Below are positions 39,396 through 44,542 of a stretch of DNA of 64,000 bases, in pieces. Source of the DNA: an uncultured Bacilli bacterium. GTDB lineage: Bacteria; Bacillota_I; Bacilli_A; RF39; UBA660. The translations under genes and the position numbers were made by a program. The stretch is from assembly GCA_934167825.1 (NCBI GenBank), contig CAKPLY010000001.1:5508-69507 (forward strand), given 5' to 3'. The notes below the pieces were generated by a model, which was not told the origin of the DNA, made no database searches, and saw only the letters and a program-made list of their open reading frames with translations. Each line of letters opens with the position of its first letter. Positions within the stretch are counted from its first letter, which is position 1.

Positions 39396-41807
39396 ATGGA
39401 CTACAAAAAGATAGAAGAGAAATGGCAAAAATATTGGTTAGATAATGAGAGTTTTAAGGCGATAACAGGAAGTGATAAGAAACCCTATTATGTATTAGTA
39501 GAATTTCCTTATCCATCAGGAAGTGGACTTCATGTTGGACATGTTAGAAGTTATACTGCACAAGATGCACTTGCTAGGATGAAGAGAATGCAGGGATATA
39601 ATGTTTTATATCCAATGGGATGGGATGCTTTTGGTGCTCCTGCAGAACAATATGCAATTAAAAATCATATTCATCCAAAAGAAGCGGTAAAAGAAAATAT
39701 TAGGACATTTAAAAGACAAATGATGACTTTAGGATTTTCTTTTGACTGGAGTCGTGAATTTTCTACTACAGATCCAGAGTATTATAAATGGACTCAATGG
39801 CAATTTTTACAATTTTATAAACATGGTATGGCATATAAAGCAAAGACTTTAGTTAATTGGTGTGATAATTGTAAGACTGTACTATCAAATGAAGATTCTG
39901 CAGGGGGAGTATGTGAAAGATGTGGAAATAAGGTAGTACAAAAAGAAAAGAGCCAATGGATGCTTAAGATGAGTAGTTATGCTGAAGATTTACTTAAGGG
40001 ACTAGATGATACTAATTTTAAAGATAAAGTTAAGTTAGGGCAAATAAACTGGATAGGTAAATCATCTGGTGTAGAAGTGAGTGTTGATATAGTTGGTGGA
40101 GGTAAATTTAGTATATTTACTACTTGTATTGAAACTATATATGGTATAACATTCTTTGTTATTGCTCCAGATGGGGAACTTGTACAAGAATTGATGCCTA
40201 GAATAGAAAATAAAGAAGAAGTACTTAAGTATATAGAAGAATCCAAAAAGAAATCTAATATGGATAGAACTGAACTTAATAAAGGTAAGAGTGGATGTAT
40301 TTTAAAGGGTATTAAAGCAATTAATCCTGTTAATGGTAGGGAAGTTTCAGTATTTTTGGGAGACTTTGTTCTTGGTAGTTATGGAACAGGTGCGGTAATG
40401 GCAGTACCTAGTCATGATGAAAGAGACTTTATGTATGCAAAAGAACATAATATTCCTATGATACAAGTAATTGATGGACAAGATACTAGTGAGCATGCTT
40501 TTGAGAAACAAGATTATTTAGGTAAGGGATGTAAATTAATTAATAGTGAAGAATTTACTGGTATGGATGTAATGGACGCAAAACGTGAGATTACTAAGAA
40601 ATTAGTATCTATGGGTATAGCAAAAGAAGTTACTAATTATAAGATGAGAGATTGGATTTTTTCAAGACAAAGATTTTGGGGAGAACCAATACCTATGGTA
40701 TATTGTGAAAAATGTGGTTATGTACCTATACCTGAAGAAGAATTACCACTTCTACTACCAGATGTTGCAGAGTATGAACCTACAGATAATGGAGAAAGTC
40801 CACTTGCTAAAATTACTTCTTGGGTAAATACTAAATGTCCTTGTTGTGGTAGTGCTGCAAAAAGAGAAACAGATACAATGCCTAACTGGGCAGGATCAAG
40901 TTGGTATTTTTTAAGATTTATGGATCCACATAATGATAAGTGTTTTGCAAGTATGGATGCGATGAAATATTGGGATAAAGTTGATTGGTACAATGGTGGT
41001 ATGGAACATACTGCAAGACACTTGCTTTACGCTAGATTTTGGGTACAATTTTTGTACAATATAGGGCTTGTTCCTAAAAAAGAAATGATTTGGACTAGAG
41101 TAAGTCATGGTATGGTACTTGGTGCAAATAATGAAAAGATGAGTAAGAGTAAAGGCAATGTAATAAATCCTGATGATGTAGTAAGTGAATTTAGTGCAGA
41201 TATTTTAAGAGTTTATGAAATGTTTATGGGAGACTATGAACAAGATGTACCTTGGAGTACTGAATCACTTAAGGGTTGTAAGAGATTTATAGAAAAAGTT
41301 ATAAGACTTAAAGATAAAGTAGTAGATAATGATAATTACTCAAAAGATTTAGAAGTGATTATTAATAAAACTATTAAAAAGGTAGAAAATGATATTATTA
41401 ATCAAGGATATAATACTGCTGTATCTGCACTTATGATTCTTGCAAATAGTTATGATAGTAAGAATGAAATAACTAAAAAAGATTATAATTTACTTTTAAC
41501 ACTTCTTAATCCTATTGCACCACATATTACTGAAGAATTAAATGAAATGATTGAATATAAACCTATATGTGAAAGTGTATGGCCAGTATATGATGAAGAA
41601 AAAACTATAGATAATTCTATAGAAATAGGAGTACAAGTAAATGGTAAACTTAGAAGTTCTATTGTTATAAATAAAGATGATTCTAAGGAAGAAATAGAAA
41701 AGAAAGCATTAAATGATGCTAATATAATTAAGAATATTATAGATAAAGAAATAGTTAAAGTAATTGTAGTACCAGGAAGAATAGTTAATATAGTTATAAA
41801 GGGATAG
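39396..41807 (+). CDS. leuS: leucyl-tRNA synthetase
   Basis: HVGHVRSYT (HIGH), KMSKSKGN, CP1 editing domain, zinc knuckles; 803 aa. Confidence 0.95.
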   Translation: MDYKKIEEKWQKYWLDNESFKAITGSDKKPYYVLVEFPYPSGSGLHVGHVRSYTAQDALARMKRMQGYNVLYPMGWDAFGAPAEQYAIKNHIHPKEAVKENIRTFKRQMMTLGFSFDWSREFSTTDPEYYKWTQWQFLQFYKHGMAYKAKTLVNWCDNCKTVLSNEDSAGGVCERCGNKVVQKEKSQWMLKMSSYAEDLLKGLDDTNFKDKVKLGQINWIGKSSGVEVSVDIVGGGKFSIFTTCIETIYGITFFVIAPDGELVQELMPRIENKEEVLKYIEESKKKSNMDRTELNKGKSGCILKGIKAINPVNGREVSVFLGDFVLGSYGTGAVMAVPSHDERDFMYAKEHNIPMIQVIDGQDTSEHAFEKQDYLGKGCKLINSEEFTGMDVMDAKREITKKLVSMGIAKEVTNYKMRDWIFSRQRFWGEPIPMVYCEKCGYVPIPEEELPLLLPDVAEYEPTDNGESPLAKITSWVNTKCPCCGSAAKRETDTMPNWAGSSWYFLRFMDPHNDKCFASMDAMKYWDKVDWYNGGMEHTARHLLYARFWVQFLYNIGLVPKKEMIWTRVSHGMVLGANNEKMSKSKGNVINPDDVVSEFSADILRVYEMFMGDYEQDVPWSTESLKGCKRFIEKVIRLKDKVVDNDNYSKDLEVIINKTIKKVENDIINQGYNTAVSALMILANSYDSKNEITKKDYNLLLTLLNPIAPHITEELNEMIEYKPICESVWPVYDEEKTIDNSIEIGVQVNGKLRSSIVINKDDSKEEIEKKALNDANIIKNIIDKEIVKVIVVPGRIVNIVIKG

Positions 41808-41850
41808 TGTTTAGCTATTTCTTTTTAATTATTAGACAAATAAATAAGGA

Positions 41851-42702
41851 ATGTACTTTATTTTAGTATATATTTATGGTAGAATTAATAACAAGAAAAG
41901 GATGTGTGTAAATTTGAAGAAATTTAGAAAGAAATTAAAGGGACTTGATTTTAAGAATAATAAGTATCCTACAATATTATATTTTACTTTAAGAATATTA
42001 GTAATTTTTCTTATGATATATAATATTACTCAAGGAAGATACGAGAATGCTTTTACTTGTTTGTTAGTACTTTTTTTACTACTTCTTCCTTTTATAATGG
42101 AAGAAAAGATAAAGTTAGAATTTTCTTCTTCTTTAGAGATAGTAATACTTTTATTTATCTTTTGTGCTGAAATTTTAGGAGAAGTAAATGCTTGGTATCA
42201 AAGAATACCTAATTTTGATACTTTAATGCATACTATTACGGGATTTATAATGGGTGCAGTAGGATTTTCATTAGTTAATATGGTTAATAATAGTGAAAGA
42301 GCAGGTATTAAGTTAAATCATAAATATTTACTTGTAGCATCTTTTTGTTTTTCTATGACTATTGGTGTTTTGTGGGAGTTTTTTGAGTTTGGAGTAGATC
42401 AAATATTTCATGCTGATATGCAAAAAGATACTTATGTAAGTGAAGTAAATTCTGTTATGTTTGATGAAACAAGAAAAAACAAGGTAGTTAATGTTAAAAT
42501 AGATAGTGTTATAGTTAATGGAGAAGTTTGGCCAGGTTATTTGGATATTGGTCTTATTGATACTATGAAGGATTTGATTGTTAACGCTATTGGGGCAATT
42601 ACTTTTTCTGTAATTGGATATATTACTATTTCTAAGAATAATGGTGAAGCAGAAAAACTAATTGTAATAAAAAAGAAAGATGACATTAGAGTTATTGGAT
42701 AA
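41851..42702 (+). CDS. integral membrane protein, YjdF/DUF2238-like (start uncertain, possibly 41902)
   Basis: Multi-TM; WEFFEFGVDQIFHADMQ region. Confidence 0.4.
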   Translation: MYFILVYIYGRINNKKRMCVNLKKFRKKLKGLDFKNNKYPTILYFTLRILVIFLMIYNITQGRYENAFTCLLVLFLLLLPFIMEEKIKLEFSSSLEIVILLFIFCAEILGEVNAWYQRIPNFDTLMHTITGFIMGAVGFSLVNMVNNSERAGIKLNHKYLLVASFCFSMTIGVLWEFFEFGVDQIFHADMQKDTYVSEVNSVMFDETRKNKVVNVKIDSVIVNGEVWPGYLDIGLIDTMKDLIVNAIGAITFSVIGYITISKNNGEAEKLIVIKKKDDIRVIG

Positions 42703-42754
42703 AAAGAAAAAGAGATTCATAAAATTGAATTTCTTTTACATTATATAAAGATAT

Positions 42755-42844
42755 AAAGAAAAAGAACTTTATTATAAAAGTACTTCATCTTTTTGCTATC
42801 ATTTTATTACTTTCTACCTTGCTAGTATTAGCGATAAAAAAATG
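42755..42844 (+). pseudogene. start-less remnant of the 30-aa hydrophobic peptide gene (KKKNFIIKVLHLFAIILLLSTLLVLAIKK*)
   Basis: About 70% identical in-frame to the 43128-43220 product, but the ATG and SD are lost (atataa-agaaaaag versus gaggaggtagatataATGaag). Confidence 0.5.
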
Positions 42845-42954
42845 ATACCTTAATTCAAACATTTTGAATTAAAAGCCGCAAATTCAATTTTGAGGTAGAC
42901 ATTCAATATGCCAAAATCAAATGTCCTCACTTTTGTAAGTATCGTTTTACTTAC
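42834..42954 (-). ncRNA. candidate antisense/small RNA 1 (minus strand): promoter TTGACA-17-TATTAT at 42961-42989, hairpins, terminator hairpin ttaattcaaa/tttgaattaa + U-run
   Basis: Consensus hexamers on the minus strand. Structured modules conserved with sRNA 2 through compensatory changes. Inference; not verified by expression data. Confidence 0.4.
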
Positions 42955-43032
42955 ATATTAATAATAACATAAAATGTATGTTTTGTCAAAGAGAAATGCA
43001 AAAAAAATATAGCAAAAAATTGCTACTGTTCG

Positions 43033-43061
43033 CTTGTTTTTACTAGTGTTTTAGAGTATAA
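43033..43061 (+). promoter_or_regulatory. putative promoter of the peptide mRNA (TTGTTT-17-TATAAT)
   Basis: Good -10 TATAAT at 43046-43051; weak -35. Confidence 0.35.
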
Positions 43062-43127
43062 TGTATATAGGAACATTTGATGTGAGTGTCGCCTCCATTC
43101 TTTCAAAAAAGAGAGGAGGTAGATATA

Positions 43128-43220
43128 ATGAAGACAAAGACTTTTATTATAAAAGTTTTAAAGCTTTTATGCACTCTTCTTCTATTATCAACCTTATTGG
43201 TCTTGGTAATAAAAAAATAG
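43128..43220 (+). CDS. 30-aa hydrophobic peptide MKTKTFIIKVLKLLCTLLLLSTLLVLVIKK: candidate type I toxin
   Basis: Strong SD GAGGAGG 8 nt upstream. Anti-SD CCTCC hairpin at 43092-43096. Single TM helix with KK tail. Convergent sRNA overlapping the 3' end. Too short for the ORF track. Confidence 0.5.
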   Translation: MKTKTFIIKVLKLLCTLLLLSTLLVLVIKK

Positions 43221-43330
43221 ACACTCAATCGTTAATGAATGAGTGTCGTTAACAAATCATTTTGAGGCGACATTCACTTACGTAATTAAATGTTCCTCTT
43301 TTTTTATTATATGCAAGAGTTCTTGCTTAC
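43212..43330 (-). ncRNA. candidate antitoxin small RNA 2 (minus strand): promoter TTGACA-17-TATTAT at 43337-43365, terminator GACACTCA hairpin + U7 abutting the peptide stop
   Basis: Perfect consensus hexamers with a 17-bp spacer on the minus strand. Hairpin gacactca..tgagtgtc then tattttttt on the minus strand. Inference. Confidence 0.45.
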
Positions 43331-43396
43331 ATACTAATAATAACATAAAATGTATGTTTTGTCAAAAGATTTTTTCAAAAATTTATATGAATTCAA

Positions 43397-43425
43397 TTGA
43401 CAAAAAACTAAAAATTTTGTATATT
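43397..43425 (+). promoter_or_regulatory. sigma-A promoter TTGACA-17-TATATT for the downstream leader/membrane gene
   Basis: Hexamers seen directly. Confidence 0.55.
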
Positions 43426-43447
43426 ATAAGTGCATAAGAAGTTATGT

Positions 43448-43554
43448 AAAAAAGCGGTGAACCCAGCCGATAAATCGGGACTTAAAAAGCGGTGAACCCA
43501 GCCATTAAATTGGGACTTGAAAAAGCGGTGAACCCGGCCATGAAACTGGGACTT
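43448..43554 (+). repeat. three tandem 36-nt direct repeats (AAAAAGCGGTGAACCCRGCC-N7-YYGGGACTT) in the 5' leader
   Basis: The period is exactly 36 nt. Each unit has a small hairpin with variable loops and compensatory stems. Confidence 0.7.
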
Positions 43555-43560
43555 AAAAAA

Positions 43561-43590
43561 GACGGCTAGAGTCTAATGCTCTAGTCTTTT
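43561..43590 (+). terminator. leader terminator/attenuator hairpin (gacggctagag..ctctagtc + TTTT) just upstream of the SD
   Basis: 8-bp stem with a T-run, 20 nt before the ATG at 43613. Confidence 0.5.
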
Positions 43591-43612
43591 ATATAGAAGG
43601 GATGATAATATT

Positions 43613-44455
43613 ATGAAAGATATAATTATAGATACATTAATTGATACTTTAAAACTAGTACCATTTCTATTTATAGCATTTTTAATACTAGAATTATTTG
43701 AGCATAAATTTAGTAAAAAAACTATTAAAGTAGTAGAAAAGTCTGGTAAATATGGTCCAATACTTGGAGGATTACTTGGTGCAATACCACAATGTGGTTT
43801 TTCTGTTATTGCTACTAATTTATATGTAAGTAGAATTATTACACTTGGAACTTTGATTAGTATATATTTATCTACTAGTGATGAAATGATACCAGTATTA
43901 ATTAGTCAAGATGCTAGTATTAGTTTAATACTTAAGATACTTTTAATTAAAGTACTTATTGGTATTTTTTGTGGAGTGATAATAGATTTAGTATTAAGAA
44001 AAAAAGAAAATTTAAAGAAAGATTATAGTTTATGTGAAGAAGAACATTGCCACTGTGAAAATAATATATTTTTATCTTCACTTAAACATACGATTAATAT
44101 AATTATCTTTATATTAGTTATTAATTTTATGCTTAATTTATGCTTCTATTATTTAGGAGAAGATTATATATCTAAGATACTTCTTAAGGATAGTATATTT
44201 GGTTCATTTGCATCTTGTTTAATTGGTCTTATTCCTAATTGTGGTGCAAGTGTAATGCTTAGTCAATTATATTTAGGTAATGCTATTAGTTTTGGTAGTT
44301 TAATTGGAGGACTATTAACTGGTAGTGGTGTAAGTTTATTAGTATTATTTAAAACTAATAAAGATATAAAAGAAAATTTAAAAATAATATTTATTTTATA
44401 TTCAATTGGAGTACTAAGTGGTATTCTTATAGAATTAATTGGAAAGGTCTTTTAA
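43613..44455 (+). CDS. integral membrane protein with two homologous halves, each carrying IPxCG(F/A)SV; putative permease
   Basis: Internal repeat IPQCGFSVIATNLY / IPNCGASVMLSQLY; 8-10 TM. Family not assigned. Confidence 0.55.
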   Translation: MKDIIIDTLIDTLKLVPFLFIAFLILELFEHKFSKKTIKVVEKSGKYGPILGGLLGAIPQCGFSVIATNLYVSRIITLGTLISIYLSTSDEMIPVLISQDASISLILKILLIKVLIGIFCGVIIDLVLRKKENLKKDYSLCEEEHCHCENNIFLSSLKHTINIIIFILVINFMLNLCFYYLGEDYISKILLKDSIFGSFASCLIGLIPNCGASVMLSQLYLGNAISFGSLIGGLLTGSGVSLLVLFKTNKDIKENLKIIFILYSIGVLSGILIELIGKVF

Positions 44456-44542
44456 ACAAAGTTCTAACTTGATGTTTACTAATGCCTTTACAAATCCTTA
44501 ATTTAATAATATAATAGACTTGTAAGGGAGTAAGTAGGATGT

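Follow-up and report, generated by a model that had tools for sequence, protein, structure and literature searches.

A candidate tandem pair of toxin-antitoxin (TA) cassettes of type I architecture occupies a single intergenic gap in the genome of an uncultured Bacilli bacterium of the RF39 lineage. The window analysed is a stretch of 64,000 nucleotides (nt) of contig CAKPLY010000001.1 (positions 5,508 to 69,507, forward strand). It is AT-rich, with a GC content of 26.6%, and the gap of 910 bp lies in it between a gene for a DUF2238-like membrane protein (41851-42702) and a gene of the ArsP_2/arsenic-efflux family (43613-44455). The gap holds one intact cassette (unit B) and one 5'-truncated cassette (unit A), each pairing the gene of a 30-residue membrane peptide with a facing gene of an antisense small RNA (sRNA). 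The two units have the same orientation with 73 nt between them, and no further copy was found by nhmmer in the whole window. It is very likely that the cassette is a conserved peptide/antisense-RNA module, and we consider it probable that it is a functional toxin-antitoxin pair. Judged by its sequence, the family is previously undescribed. It is known in kind, as type I systems have already been found in Firmicutes and Tenericutes (PMC12390103), so we regard it as a new family within a known class. A preliminary description, made from the letters of the window, had proposed a tandem locus in an intergenic region of about 900 bp, with the sRNA module repeated about 380 bp upstream. Both points are confirmed: a promoter block of 44 nt is common to the two units (95% identity) at a spacing of 376 nt, and the alignment of unit A with unit B runs from the start codon to the sRNA promoter.

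Unit B is the complete cassette (Table 1). Its open reading frame (ORF) encodes a peptide with a Lys-rich N-terminus, a single hydrophobic span with a core of about 20 residues, and a KK tail. The preliminary description had placed here a single-span, 30-residue peptide with a basic C-terminus, behind a Shine-Dalgarno (SD) sequence and a CCTCC upstream of it; the peptide has this build, and ORF, SD and CCTCC all lie where it had put them. A longer ORF of 44 residues starting with GTG at 43086 was rejected as a real gene, since the homologs described below place the true start at the ATG of the shorter ORF. Transcription is predicted to start at about 43069 and to give an mRNA of about 237 nt. 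Among the homologs, a TATAAT-like -10 element ends 6 nt upstream of an AGGAAC motif in 69 of 103 units, and the commonest -35 element is TTGTTT. The block TGTTCGCTTGTTT, which overlaps the weak -35 of the toxin promoter, recurs upstream of many units (e.g. L011, L018, L019, L022 and L024). Its conservation exceeds what a -35 alone needs, and it could be an operator for some regulator or an UP-like element. At the other end of the mRNA, the 3' untranslated region (3'UTR) can alternatively fold on itself: positions 43264-98 would form a local hairpin with T7 (43299-305) behind it, likely the terminator of the mRNA.

On the opposite strand and facing the peptide gene, a gene for an sRNA of about 123 nt is predicted. 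The minus-strand TTGACA-17-TATTAT promoter that had been claimed for it is present and is additionally TG-extended. The convergent RNA, first put at about 120 nt with hairpins and a U7 terminator, also agrees with the sequence, and three hairpins are predicted: a 5' hairpin (43313-26), a middle one, complementary to the terminator hairpin of the mRNA, and a last one that forms the sRNA terminator together with U7. The fold has z = -5.3 against shuffles. The sRNA and the mRNA are perfectly complementary over about 98 nt (about 43208-43305), and their duplex has an energy of -155.9 kcal/mol. As for the terminator, which was said to abut the toxin stop, the hairpin and U7 stand, but the terminator extends into the end of the ORF instead of stopping next to it, because its U7 is the complement of 43211-17, which covers the AAA AAA Lys codons of the peptide. 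The G of the TAG stop is also the first base of the sRNA terminator stem. The KK tail may have been shaped by the antisense terminator as much as by the function of the peptide. Outside the overlap, the pairing of sRNA-B with the 5'UTR was not better than that of shuffles (-29.7 vs -22.5 +/- 3.8).

Is the cassette found in other genomes? A protein search, with the 44-residue GTG-extended ORF as initial query, gave five metagenome peptides, every one starting with MKTKTFIIKVL. Their contigs differ in gene context and have the whole architecture in common, i.e. the 5'UTR, the SD, the post-stop hairpin, a 3' box, the sRNA 5' hairpin and a minus-strand promoter at the same position. Species-representative genomes were scanned for the first ten codons, written as a degenerate DNA pattern, and at least 119 stretches matched; the family counts in this work rest on these and on the metagenome contigs. 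With nhmmer, at least 170 matches were found at E <= 1e-3, and at least 152 at E < 1e-10 in 119 genome-scan loci. In total there are at least about 158 related units of the same architecture (119 genome stretches plus metagenome contigs), which is the outcome of the search of related genomes with the peptide that the preliminary description had suggested. The hosts are nearly all gut metagenome-assembled genomes (MAGs) labelled uncultured Bacilli, Tenericutes or Mycoplasma sp. A few units were seen on contigs binned as Bacteroides, Phocaeicola, Muribaculaceae or Cyanobacteria MAGs (L013, L023, L075, L079, L081, L018). Because these copies are near-identical to Bacilli copies, the placements look like bin contamination and not real spread.

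The consensus peptide of the family has 30 residues, MKTKTFIIKVLKLIAIILLLSTLLVLAIKK. Its subtypes include those ending in ...LLLSTLLVLAIKK and ...LFLLIIMIVVIKK, a 31-residue form ending in ...LVLTFKIK, a 34-residue form, and more distant ones, e.g. MKKKDLLISFLILIIILLIVSLMILCIKK. All of them are carried on one common RNA scaffold, and the divergent subtypes retain the K-rich N-terminus, the hydrophobic core and the basic tail. Frame 0 is open in 68 of 68 units of the 30-residue type, whereas the other two frames are open in 0 and 6 of these 68 units. The SD is conserved as well. An ORF of 27-35 residues is kept in 106 of the 124 full-length units; 79 of these have exactly 30 residues, 75 end in IKK, and 45 distinct peptides occur. 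Pairwise codon differences over codons 11-30 amount to 7631 synonymous and 12347 non-synonymous ones, and the non-synonymous changes inspected in the core are mostly among L, I, V, F and M. These sequence patterns support the ORF as encoding a real peptide. Frameshifts, early stops or a lost stop were found in about 10 copies.

The family shows no obligatory partner gene. The 251 nearest ORFs fall into 162 clusters, and the largest of these (11, 11 and 9 members) all come from one syntenic clade with units in several consecutive intergenic gaps. At least two units stand within 8 kb of each other in 26 of 125 loci; all 34 adjacent pairs have the same orientation, many of them 56-134 nt apart. 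The comparison of loci supports that tandem duplication is recurrent in the family. In one MAG clade (L029, L035, L048, L054, L122 and L126), 3-4 units of different subtypes stand in consecutive gaps of a syntenic cluster, each about 70 nt from the adjacent genes and all in one shared orientation. In another locus (L053, 4794-5001), a segment of about 78 nt with the ORF end and the post-stop region (positions 132-210 of the family profile) is repeated head-to-tail three times after an otherwise normal unit.

No known family was matched by the cassette. Searches of Pfam and NCBIfam at E <= 10 gave no toxin family for the unit A or unit B peptide, the Fst, Ldr, Hok, Ibs and TisB families included. 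Five subtype peptides searched against PHROGs at E <= 1 gave no family except a weak match (E 0.33) to one of unknown function. The Rfam scan of 41500-44500 at E <= 10 returned noise only (snoR116, HAV_CRE, and BsrG at 14.7 bits), with no RatA or SR match. A blastn search of unit B against phage and plasmid collections had no match, which argues that the unit is not a known plasmid or phage module. In the literature, nothing was found on the peptide motif, nor on RF39 together with type I TA systems.

Unit A is the truncated cassette. It begins 51 nt past the stop of the DUF2238-like gene and carries neither an SD nor a 5'UTR nor its own promoter for the peptide remnant. On the profile hidden Markov model (HMM) of the family, unit B covers positions 4-305 and unit A positions 66-301 only, so that exactly the 5'UTR, the SD and the promoter are missing. 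It had been described as a start-less toxin remnant; the loss of the SD and the ATG is right, while the remnant lies at 42756-42845 and not at 42755-42844. The equivalent minus-strand promoter (42989-42961) and hairpins of compensatory sequence had been expected in this second unit, and they are found: the 5' sRNA hairpin is TGTAAGT/ACTTACA (42934-55) in unit A against GCAAG/CTTGC in unit B, the middle hairpin lies within 42892-42928, and a terminator-like hairpin at 42848-75, with the U7 tract 5 nt away from its stem. The fold of sRNA-A has z = -4.3 against shuffles. From its sequence, unit A reads as a dead toxin copy that keeps a complete sRNA gene, and a few other 5'-truncated units keep the sRNA gene as well (L014, L069). 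Then is unit A the product of a recent duplication? In a manual codon-by-codon reading, about 10 codons differ synonymously between the two units, including two-base Leu changes, which argues for old paralogs that each evolved as coding sequence, and not for a recent event. The sequence of unit A is identical in an independent assembly (L248); no strain variant of it was found, this identical contig being all that turned up. The partial complementarity of sRNA-A with mRNA-B amounts to -56.1 kcal/mol against -36.4 +/- 4.7 for shuffles, so that on this energy model sRNA-A might serve as a spare, weaker antitoxin. Two independent Logan assemblies of the same strain break at the repeat: L248 ends at 42990 and L001 begins at about 43337, both inside the shared 44-nt sRNA-promoter block. 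Many MAG contigs likewise end within units, and the repeat fragments the assemblies of such genomes.

The comparison of units provides evidence at the RNA level on both strands. In the expected 85-nt segment, the best minus-strand promoter reaches at least 9/12 in 82 of 91 units and is TG-extended in 86 of 91, while the plus-strand reading of the same segment, taken as control, mostly reaches 7-8/12. In an alignment of 42 sequences, the invariant columns of the sRNA promoter region are solely T1, A2 and T6 of the -10 and the TG dinucleotide. The 5' hairpin of the sRNA occurs in several variants (GCAAG/CTTGC, GAAG/CTTC, ATGAG/CTCAT and GTAAA/TTTAC). RNAalifold on the minus strand recovers the middle hairpin and the terminator hairpin, and 8 of their 16 pairs show compensatory changes. 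In the post-stop and 3' hairpins, plus-strand G·U pairs make up 1-2% and A·C 7-9%; the latter read as G·U on the minus strand, which suggests that these hairpins are better formed in the sRNA.

On the mRNA strand the pattern is different in the pairing of the two ends. The ORF is flanked by inverted repeats (43082-95/43264-77, 14 nt, 93%; 43069-81/43285-97, 13 nt, 92%), and the 237-nt mRNA of unit B has a predicted fold of -77.4 kcal/mol (z = -8.1), in which a 27-bp helix closes the molecule by joining its first 27 nt to its last 35 nt or so. Folding of the mRNA ends and of the sRNA had been suggested as a check, and it gives this closure, the low z of both sRNAs and the 98-nt duplex. The same closure is in the minimum free energy (MFE) structure of 75 of 81 homolog mRNAs, and across the alignment the two halves of the 5'UTR:3'UTR helix are 83% and 94% paired. 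Changes on both sides were seen at columns 13/300, 40/269 (UA 20, GC 10), 41/268 (AU 18, UG 10, CG 9) and 43/266. Note that columns 40 and 41 with 268 and 269 are unpaired in the local hairpins, so that they speak specifically for the long-distance pairing. In this helix, plus-strand G·U accounts for 17% and A·C for 3%, and one G·U is present in 41 of 42 sequences. This indicates selection at the RNA level on the mRNA strand, and not a DNA inverted repeat. The complementarity of the two mRNA ends had been proposed before, and the pairing is supported by this covariation and by the plus-strand G·U; its 3' partner GAGGCGACA is at 43264-72, and not at 43274-82 as first given.

Two further elements of the mRNA bear on translation. 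Ahead of the SD, the CCUC(C) hardly varies within the family. Inside the ORF, codons 5-10 form a hairpin, and the third bases in its stem are near-fixed (codon 5 ACT in 90/91, codon 6 TTT in 90/91, codon 9 AAA in 86/91), with codon 7 in the loop as ATT in 53, ATA in 28 and ATC in 10 units, and the flanking codons 3 and 10 varying freely. Codon usage of this kind suggests that the hairpin probably explains the invariant TFIIKV, by constraining codons 5-10, and that it probably adds a barrier to initiation. In a more tentative reading, the gene would code twice over, with the KK codons doubling as the U-tract of the sRNA and codons 5-10 as a hairpin of the mRNA.

How might the two RNAs work together? 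We propose that a modest promoter (TTGTTT-17-TATAAT) would give the mRNA of about 237 nt for the presumed toxin, a 30-residue peptide with a single span. The ends of this mRNA would pair, the upstream CCUCC would hold the SD in a hairpin, and a small hairpin would follow just past the start codon. With its closed ends, sequestered SD and post-start hairpin, the mRNA is predicted to be compact, stable and poorly translated. A strong TG-extended promoter would provide abundant sRNA of about 123 nt, perfectly complementary to the 3' 98 nt or so of the mRNA. The sRNA would pair with the 3'UTR, with first contact probably made via complementary hairpin loops, and the duplex would displace the G·U-containing 5'UTR and provide an extended double-stranded substrate for cleavage of the RNase III type. 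The opened toxin mRNA, having lost its protective closed ends, would decay; RatA and SR4, two antitoxin RNAs discussed below, act on their targets by such duplex or RNase III-type decay. In subtype-1 members, e.g. unit B, the freed CCUCC may also close on the SD. When the supply of sRNA drops, the stable mRNA would be translated and the peptide would damage the membrane. The 5'UTR and the antisense sRNA are both complementary to the 3'UTR, so that the sRNA itself carries the AGGAACAUUU...GUGAAUGUCGCCUC sequence of the 5'UTR. Its match to the 3'UTR is perfect while the 5'UTR pairs via conserved G·U wobbles, and the sRNA should therefore win the competition. A tentative extension, which we think possible but doubtful, is that the antitoxin is a molecular mimic of the 5'UTR of the toxin mRNA, within a three-state RNA switch that couples the antitoxin level to mRNA stability and ribosome access.

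Several observations weigh against parts of this scheme and should be set beside it. The predicted mean probability of an unpaired SD is 0.06 in the full-length mRNAs; when the 3'UTR is blocked, as a stand-in for bound sRNA, it is 0.02. The SD is thus predicted to be sequestered in either state, and the thermodynamics do not support a translational switch. Of the SD/anti-SD switch claimed in the preliminary description, the conserved CCTCC and the paired SD remain, and the switching itself is weakly supported by the folding model, its direction agreeing with the proposal and its effect being small. The local 5' and 3' hairpins, 81% and 91% paired, fit the alignment nearly as well as the long-distance pairing does. 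There is also a third pairing, between the 5'UTR octamer UGAGUGUC (43083-90) and the post-stop GACACUCA (43220-27), so that two 3' partners are possible for the octamer, GACAUUCA in the closing helix or GACACUCA. This pairing is kept in 98.7% of cells with a few compensatory changes (e.g. L025), and it competes with the terminator hairpin and with the 5'-3' closing helix. As far as the alignment can tell, the mRNA has at least three mutually exclusive conserved pairings. The covariation largely separates two or three subtypes, which means fewer independent events than the cell counts suggest. Moreover, as neither a known toxin family nor an Rfam antitoxin was matched, the word toxin here is based on architecture and composition, and the host genomes of the family are all uncultured MAGs.

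There is a further question of concern, whether the peptide is a toxin at all. It might be a benign small membrane protein, a regulator or a subunit as other bacterial membrane peptides of some 30 residues are, whose level is tuned by a cis-antisense sRNA; such a protein would not be expected in the toxin families, none of which the peptide matches, and the purifying selection seen in most copies (106 of 124 intact) would suit it too, toxicity being assigned here by architecture. A benign role is harder to reconcile with the lack of a conserved partner gene or operon among the 251 neighbours, with tandem arrays and several paralogous subtypes per genome, with the recurrence of frameshifted, stop-less or truncated copies, and with an SD heavily sequestered under an antisense promoter far stronger than the mRNA promoter. 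Multiple and decaying copies, a sequestered SD and a strong antisense promoter are together the usual signature of type I TA systems, and not of housekeeping small proteins. We consider a non-toxic role unlikely. The sRNA could also be the main product, acting in trans on distant targets with the overlap with the peptide mRNA being secondary. The sRNA gene outlives the toxin part in unit A and in L014 and L069, and sRNA-A still partly pairs with mRNA-B (-56 vs -36 +/- 5 kcal/mol for shuffles), as one might expect then. But the sequence of the sRNA varies by subtype and tracks its cognate 3'UTR, where the seed of a trans-acting RNA would be conserved, and the pairing of sRNA-B with the 5'UTR did not exceed that of shuffles, so we regard this as very improbable.

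Another possibility is that the unit is a selfish or structural intergenic repeat, either an element like a miniature inverted-repeat transposable element with terminal inverted repeats or a bidirectional terminator or insulator, in which ORF and sRNA are incidental. A 27-nt inverted repeat does flank the ORF, terminator-like hairpins face both directions in each unit, and the units are repetitive, intergenic and assembly-breaking. Against this, the reading frame, the SD and the start codon are conserved, conservation reaches beyond the inverted repeat on both sides up to two promoters, the G·U pairs within the repeat are those of the plus strand only (17% vs 3% A·C; one in 41/42), and no transposase was seen beside the units. 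A mere repeat is in our judgement quite improbable, and a type I toxin-antitoxin pair is the reading that we prefer.

Which known systems does the cassette resemble? Two features of the type I class are present at the sequence level, a short hydrophobic membrane-spanning peptide ORF and a predicted antisense RNA gene with 98-nt complementarity. Homology searches do not easily detect type I systems, whose distribution is thought to be narrow (PMC12390103). In the Gram-positive type I families, according to T1TAdb, the antisense RNA lies on the 3' side and partly overlaps the mRNA (PMC8594479). The preliminary description had likened the locus to txpA/ratA and bsrG/SR4. The architecture bears this out, while membership in these families is not found in Rfam or Pfam. 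As in bsrG/SR4 of the Bacillus subtilis SPbeta prophage (with its relatives bsrE/SR5, bsrH and yonT/SR6), the mRNA of a small hydrophobic peptide faces a convergent, 3'-overlapping sRNA, the stronger of the two promoters is that of the antitoxin, and the SD lies within a helix. SR4 and bsrG overlap by roughly 120 nt, compared with about 98 nt here. SR4 reportedly acts dually, in the account of Jahn and Brantl from 2013, by duplex-triggered decay and by binding at the 3' end that alters the structure at the SD; a dual action of this sort is proposed for the present sRNA too. There is no homology to bsrG in sequence or structure, however: the Rfam BsrG model gives 14.7 bits against a gathering score of 55 (E = 2) and the peptide has no Pfam match. 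The present peptide has 30 residues with the invariant MKTKTFIIKV N-terminus and the KK tail, its locus is chromosomal and intergenic in an uncultured lineage while bsrG is on a prophage, and the mRNA of this family has the 27-bp 5'-3' closing helix; we know of no description of such a helix for bsrG. The antisense RNA is likewise convergent and 3'-overlapping in txpA/RatA of the B. subtilis skin element, where RatA drives the RNase III-dependent decay of the txpA toxin mRNA. TxpA has 59 residues and RatA about 220 nt, whereas the present peptide has 30 residues and the sRNA about 123 nt, with no match in Rfam or Pfam.

The closed mRNA recalls a different group. The full-length hok mRNA of hok/Sok (plasmid R1) is locked by a 5'-3' interaction and is stable and translationally inert (Franch, Gultyaev and Gerdes 1997, cited in PMC8594479), and a long-distance 5'-3' lock is described for the toxin mRNA of aapA1/IsoA1 in Helicobacter pylori (PMC6733600). 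Alternative or metastable pairings also occur in these mRNAs. The likeness lies in the long-distance pairing that closes the full-length mRNA, here in 75 of the 81 MFE structures. In hok/Sok and aapA1/IsoA1, both Gram-negative, the mRNA is processed at its 3' end and the antisense RNA acts on its 5' region or on the region of translation initiation. Here the sRNA is complementary to the 3'UTR itself, so that sRNA and 5'UTR would be direct competitors for one sequence. There is also no homology to HOK_GEF of Pfam. The peptides of fst/RNAII (par of pAD1) and SprA1/SprA1AS are Firmicute ones of about 30 residues, with a terminator region shared by the convergent RNAs and a 5' helix that sequesters the SD. 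Functionally, these RNAs pair at sites beyond their overlap (PMC8594479). For the present sRNA, additional pairing with the 5'UTR was not significant, so that a mode of this style is unsupported. Neither Fst_toxin in Pfam nor Fst-antitoxin in Rfam gave a match. The ldr/Rdl, ibs/Sib and zor/orz systems of E. coli are intergenic direct repeats in tandem or multiple copies, some of them degenerate. The present units resemble them in being multi-copy and of the same orientation, with two or more in 26 of 125 loci, and differ in their peptides and antisense geometry, the hosts of those systems being Gram-negative.

Table 1. Features of the intergenic gap, in positions of the window
Feature	Positions	Strand	Description
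Unit A	42753-42993	+ (peptide remnant), - (sRNA)	cassette starting at the start codon
Unit A peptide remnant	42753-42845	+	ATA (42753) for ATG, then KKKNFIIKVLHLFAIILLLSTLLVLAIKK*; AAG 42756 to TGA 42843-45
sRNA-A (predicted)	42833-42954	-	about 122 nt; aligns to unit B
sRNA-A promoter	42961-42989	-	TTGACA-17-TATTAT, TG-extended
Unit B	~43027-43365	+ (peptide mRNA), - (sRNA)	complete cassette
Unit B toxin-mRNA promoter	43027-43062	+	block TGTTCGCTTGTTT 43027-39, weak -35 TTGTTT 43034-39, 17-nt spacer, -10 TATAAT 43057-62
Unit B 5'UTR	43069-43127	+	5' arm of long-distance pairing 43069-43095, anti-SD CCTCC 43092-96, SD GGAGG 43115-19 (8 nt upstream of ATG 43128)
Unit B peptide ORF	43128-43220	+	30 residues, MKTKTFIIKVLKLLCTLLLLSTLLVLVIKK, TAG stop 43218-20
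Hairpin inside ORF	43140-43156	+	ACUUUUAUUAUAAAAGU, codons 5-10 (ACU UUU AUU AUA AAA GUU), 7 bp
Post-stop hairpin	43220-43247	either	GACACTCA-N12-TGAGTGTC, arms 43220-27/43240-47; 5' arm complementary to 5'UTR octamer 43083-90
Unit B 3'UTR end	43264-43305	+	GAGGCGACATTCAC 43264-77 and ATTAAATGTTCCT 43285-97, the 3' arms of the 27-bp pairing with the 5'UTR
sRNA-B (predicted antitoxin)	43208-43330	-	about 123 nt; three hairpins and U7
sRNA-B promoter	43337-43365	-	-35 TTGACA 43365-60, 17-nt spacer, TG-extended -10 TATTAT 43342-37
Tandem repeat array	43449-43559 (within 43397-43586)		three 35-36-nt repeats, AAAAAGCGGTGAACCCAGCC..GGGACTT; own TTGACA-17-TATATT promoter and intrinsic terminator

Downstream of unit B, the remainder of the gap contains a tandem repeat array with a promoter and a terminator of its own. 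On two metagenome contigs (L165, L207), a ToxN_toxin gene (PF13958, E = 2e-47 and 2e-45) follows a near-identical triple array and its terminator. By this comparison the array is a type III antitoxin of the ToxI/antiQ-like kind. With ArsP_2 as its next gene, and with no homolog of ToxN found within the 64 kb (best tblastn E = 2.1), it is an orphan. Rfam gave no match for the array. A triple riboswitch or a protein-binding leader was also considered for it and rejected, as its fold has z = -0.85 and its homologs show a ToxI-like array.

The gap of 910 bp is thus a small graveyard of TA modules, and it illustrates that AT-rich intergenic regions can be dense with TA remnants, with two candidate type I units and a putative orphan type III antitoxin in about 900 bp. 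The units are also a marker repeat that accounts for assembly breaks in these MAGs. The natural covariation on both strands offers a ready-made RNA structural model, and if the proposal is true, the cassette would be a compact RNA-controlled kill switch or regulatory device open to testing in heterologous hosts. For the biology of the hosts, which are uncultured small-genome gut Bacilli or "Tenericutes", a group without genetics, the finding would add a new and abundant type I TA family, present in at least 119 species-level genomes.

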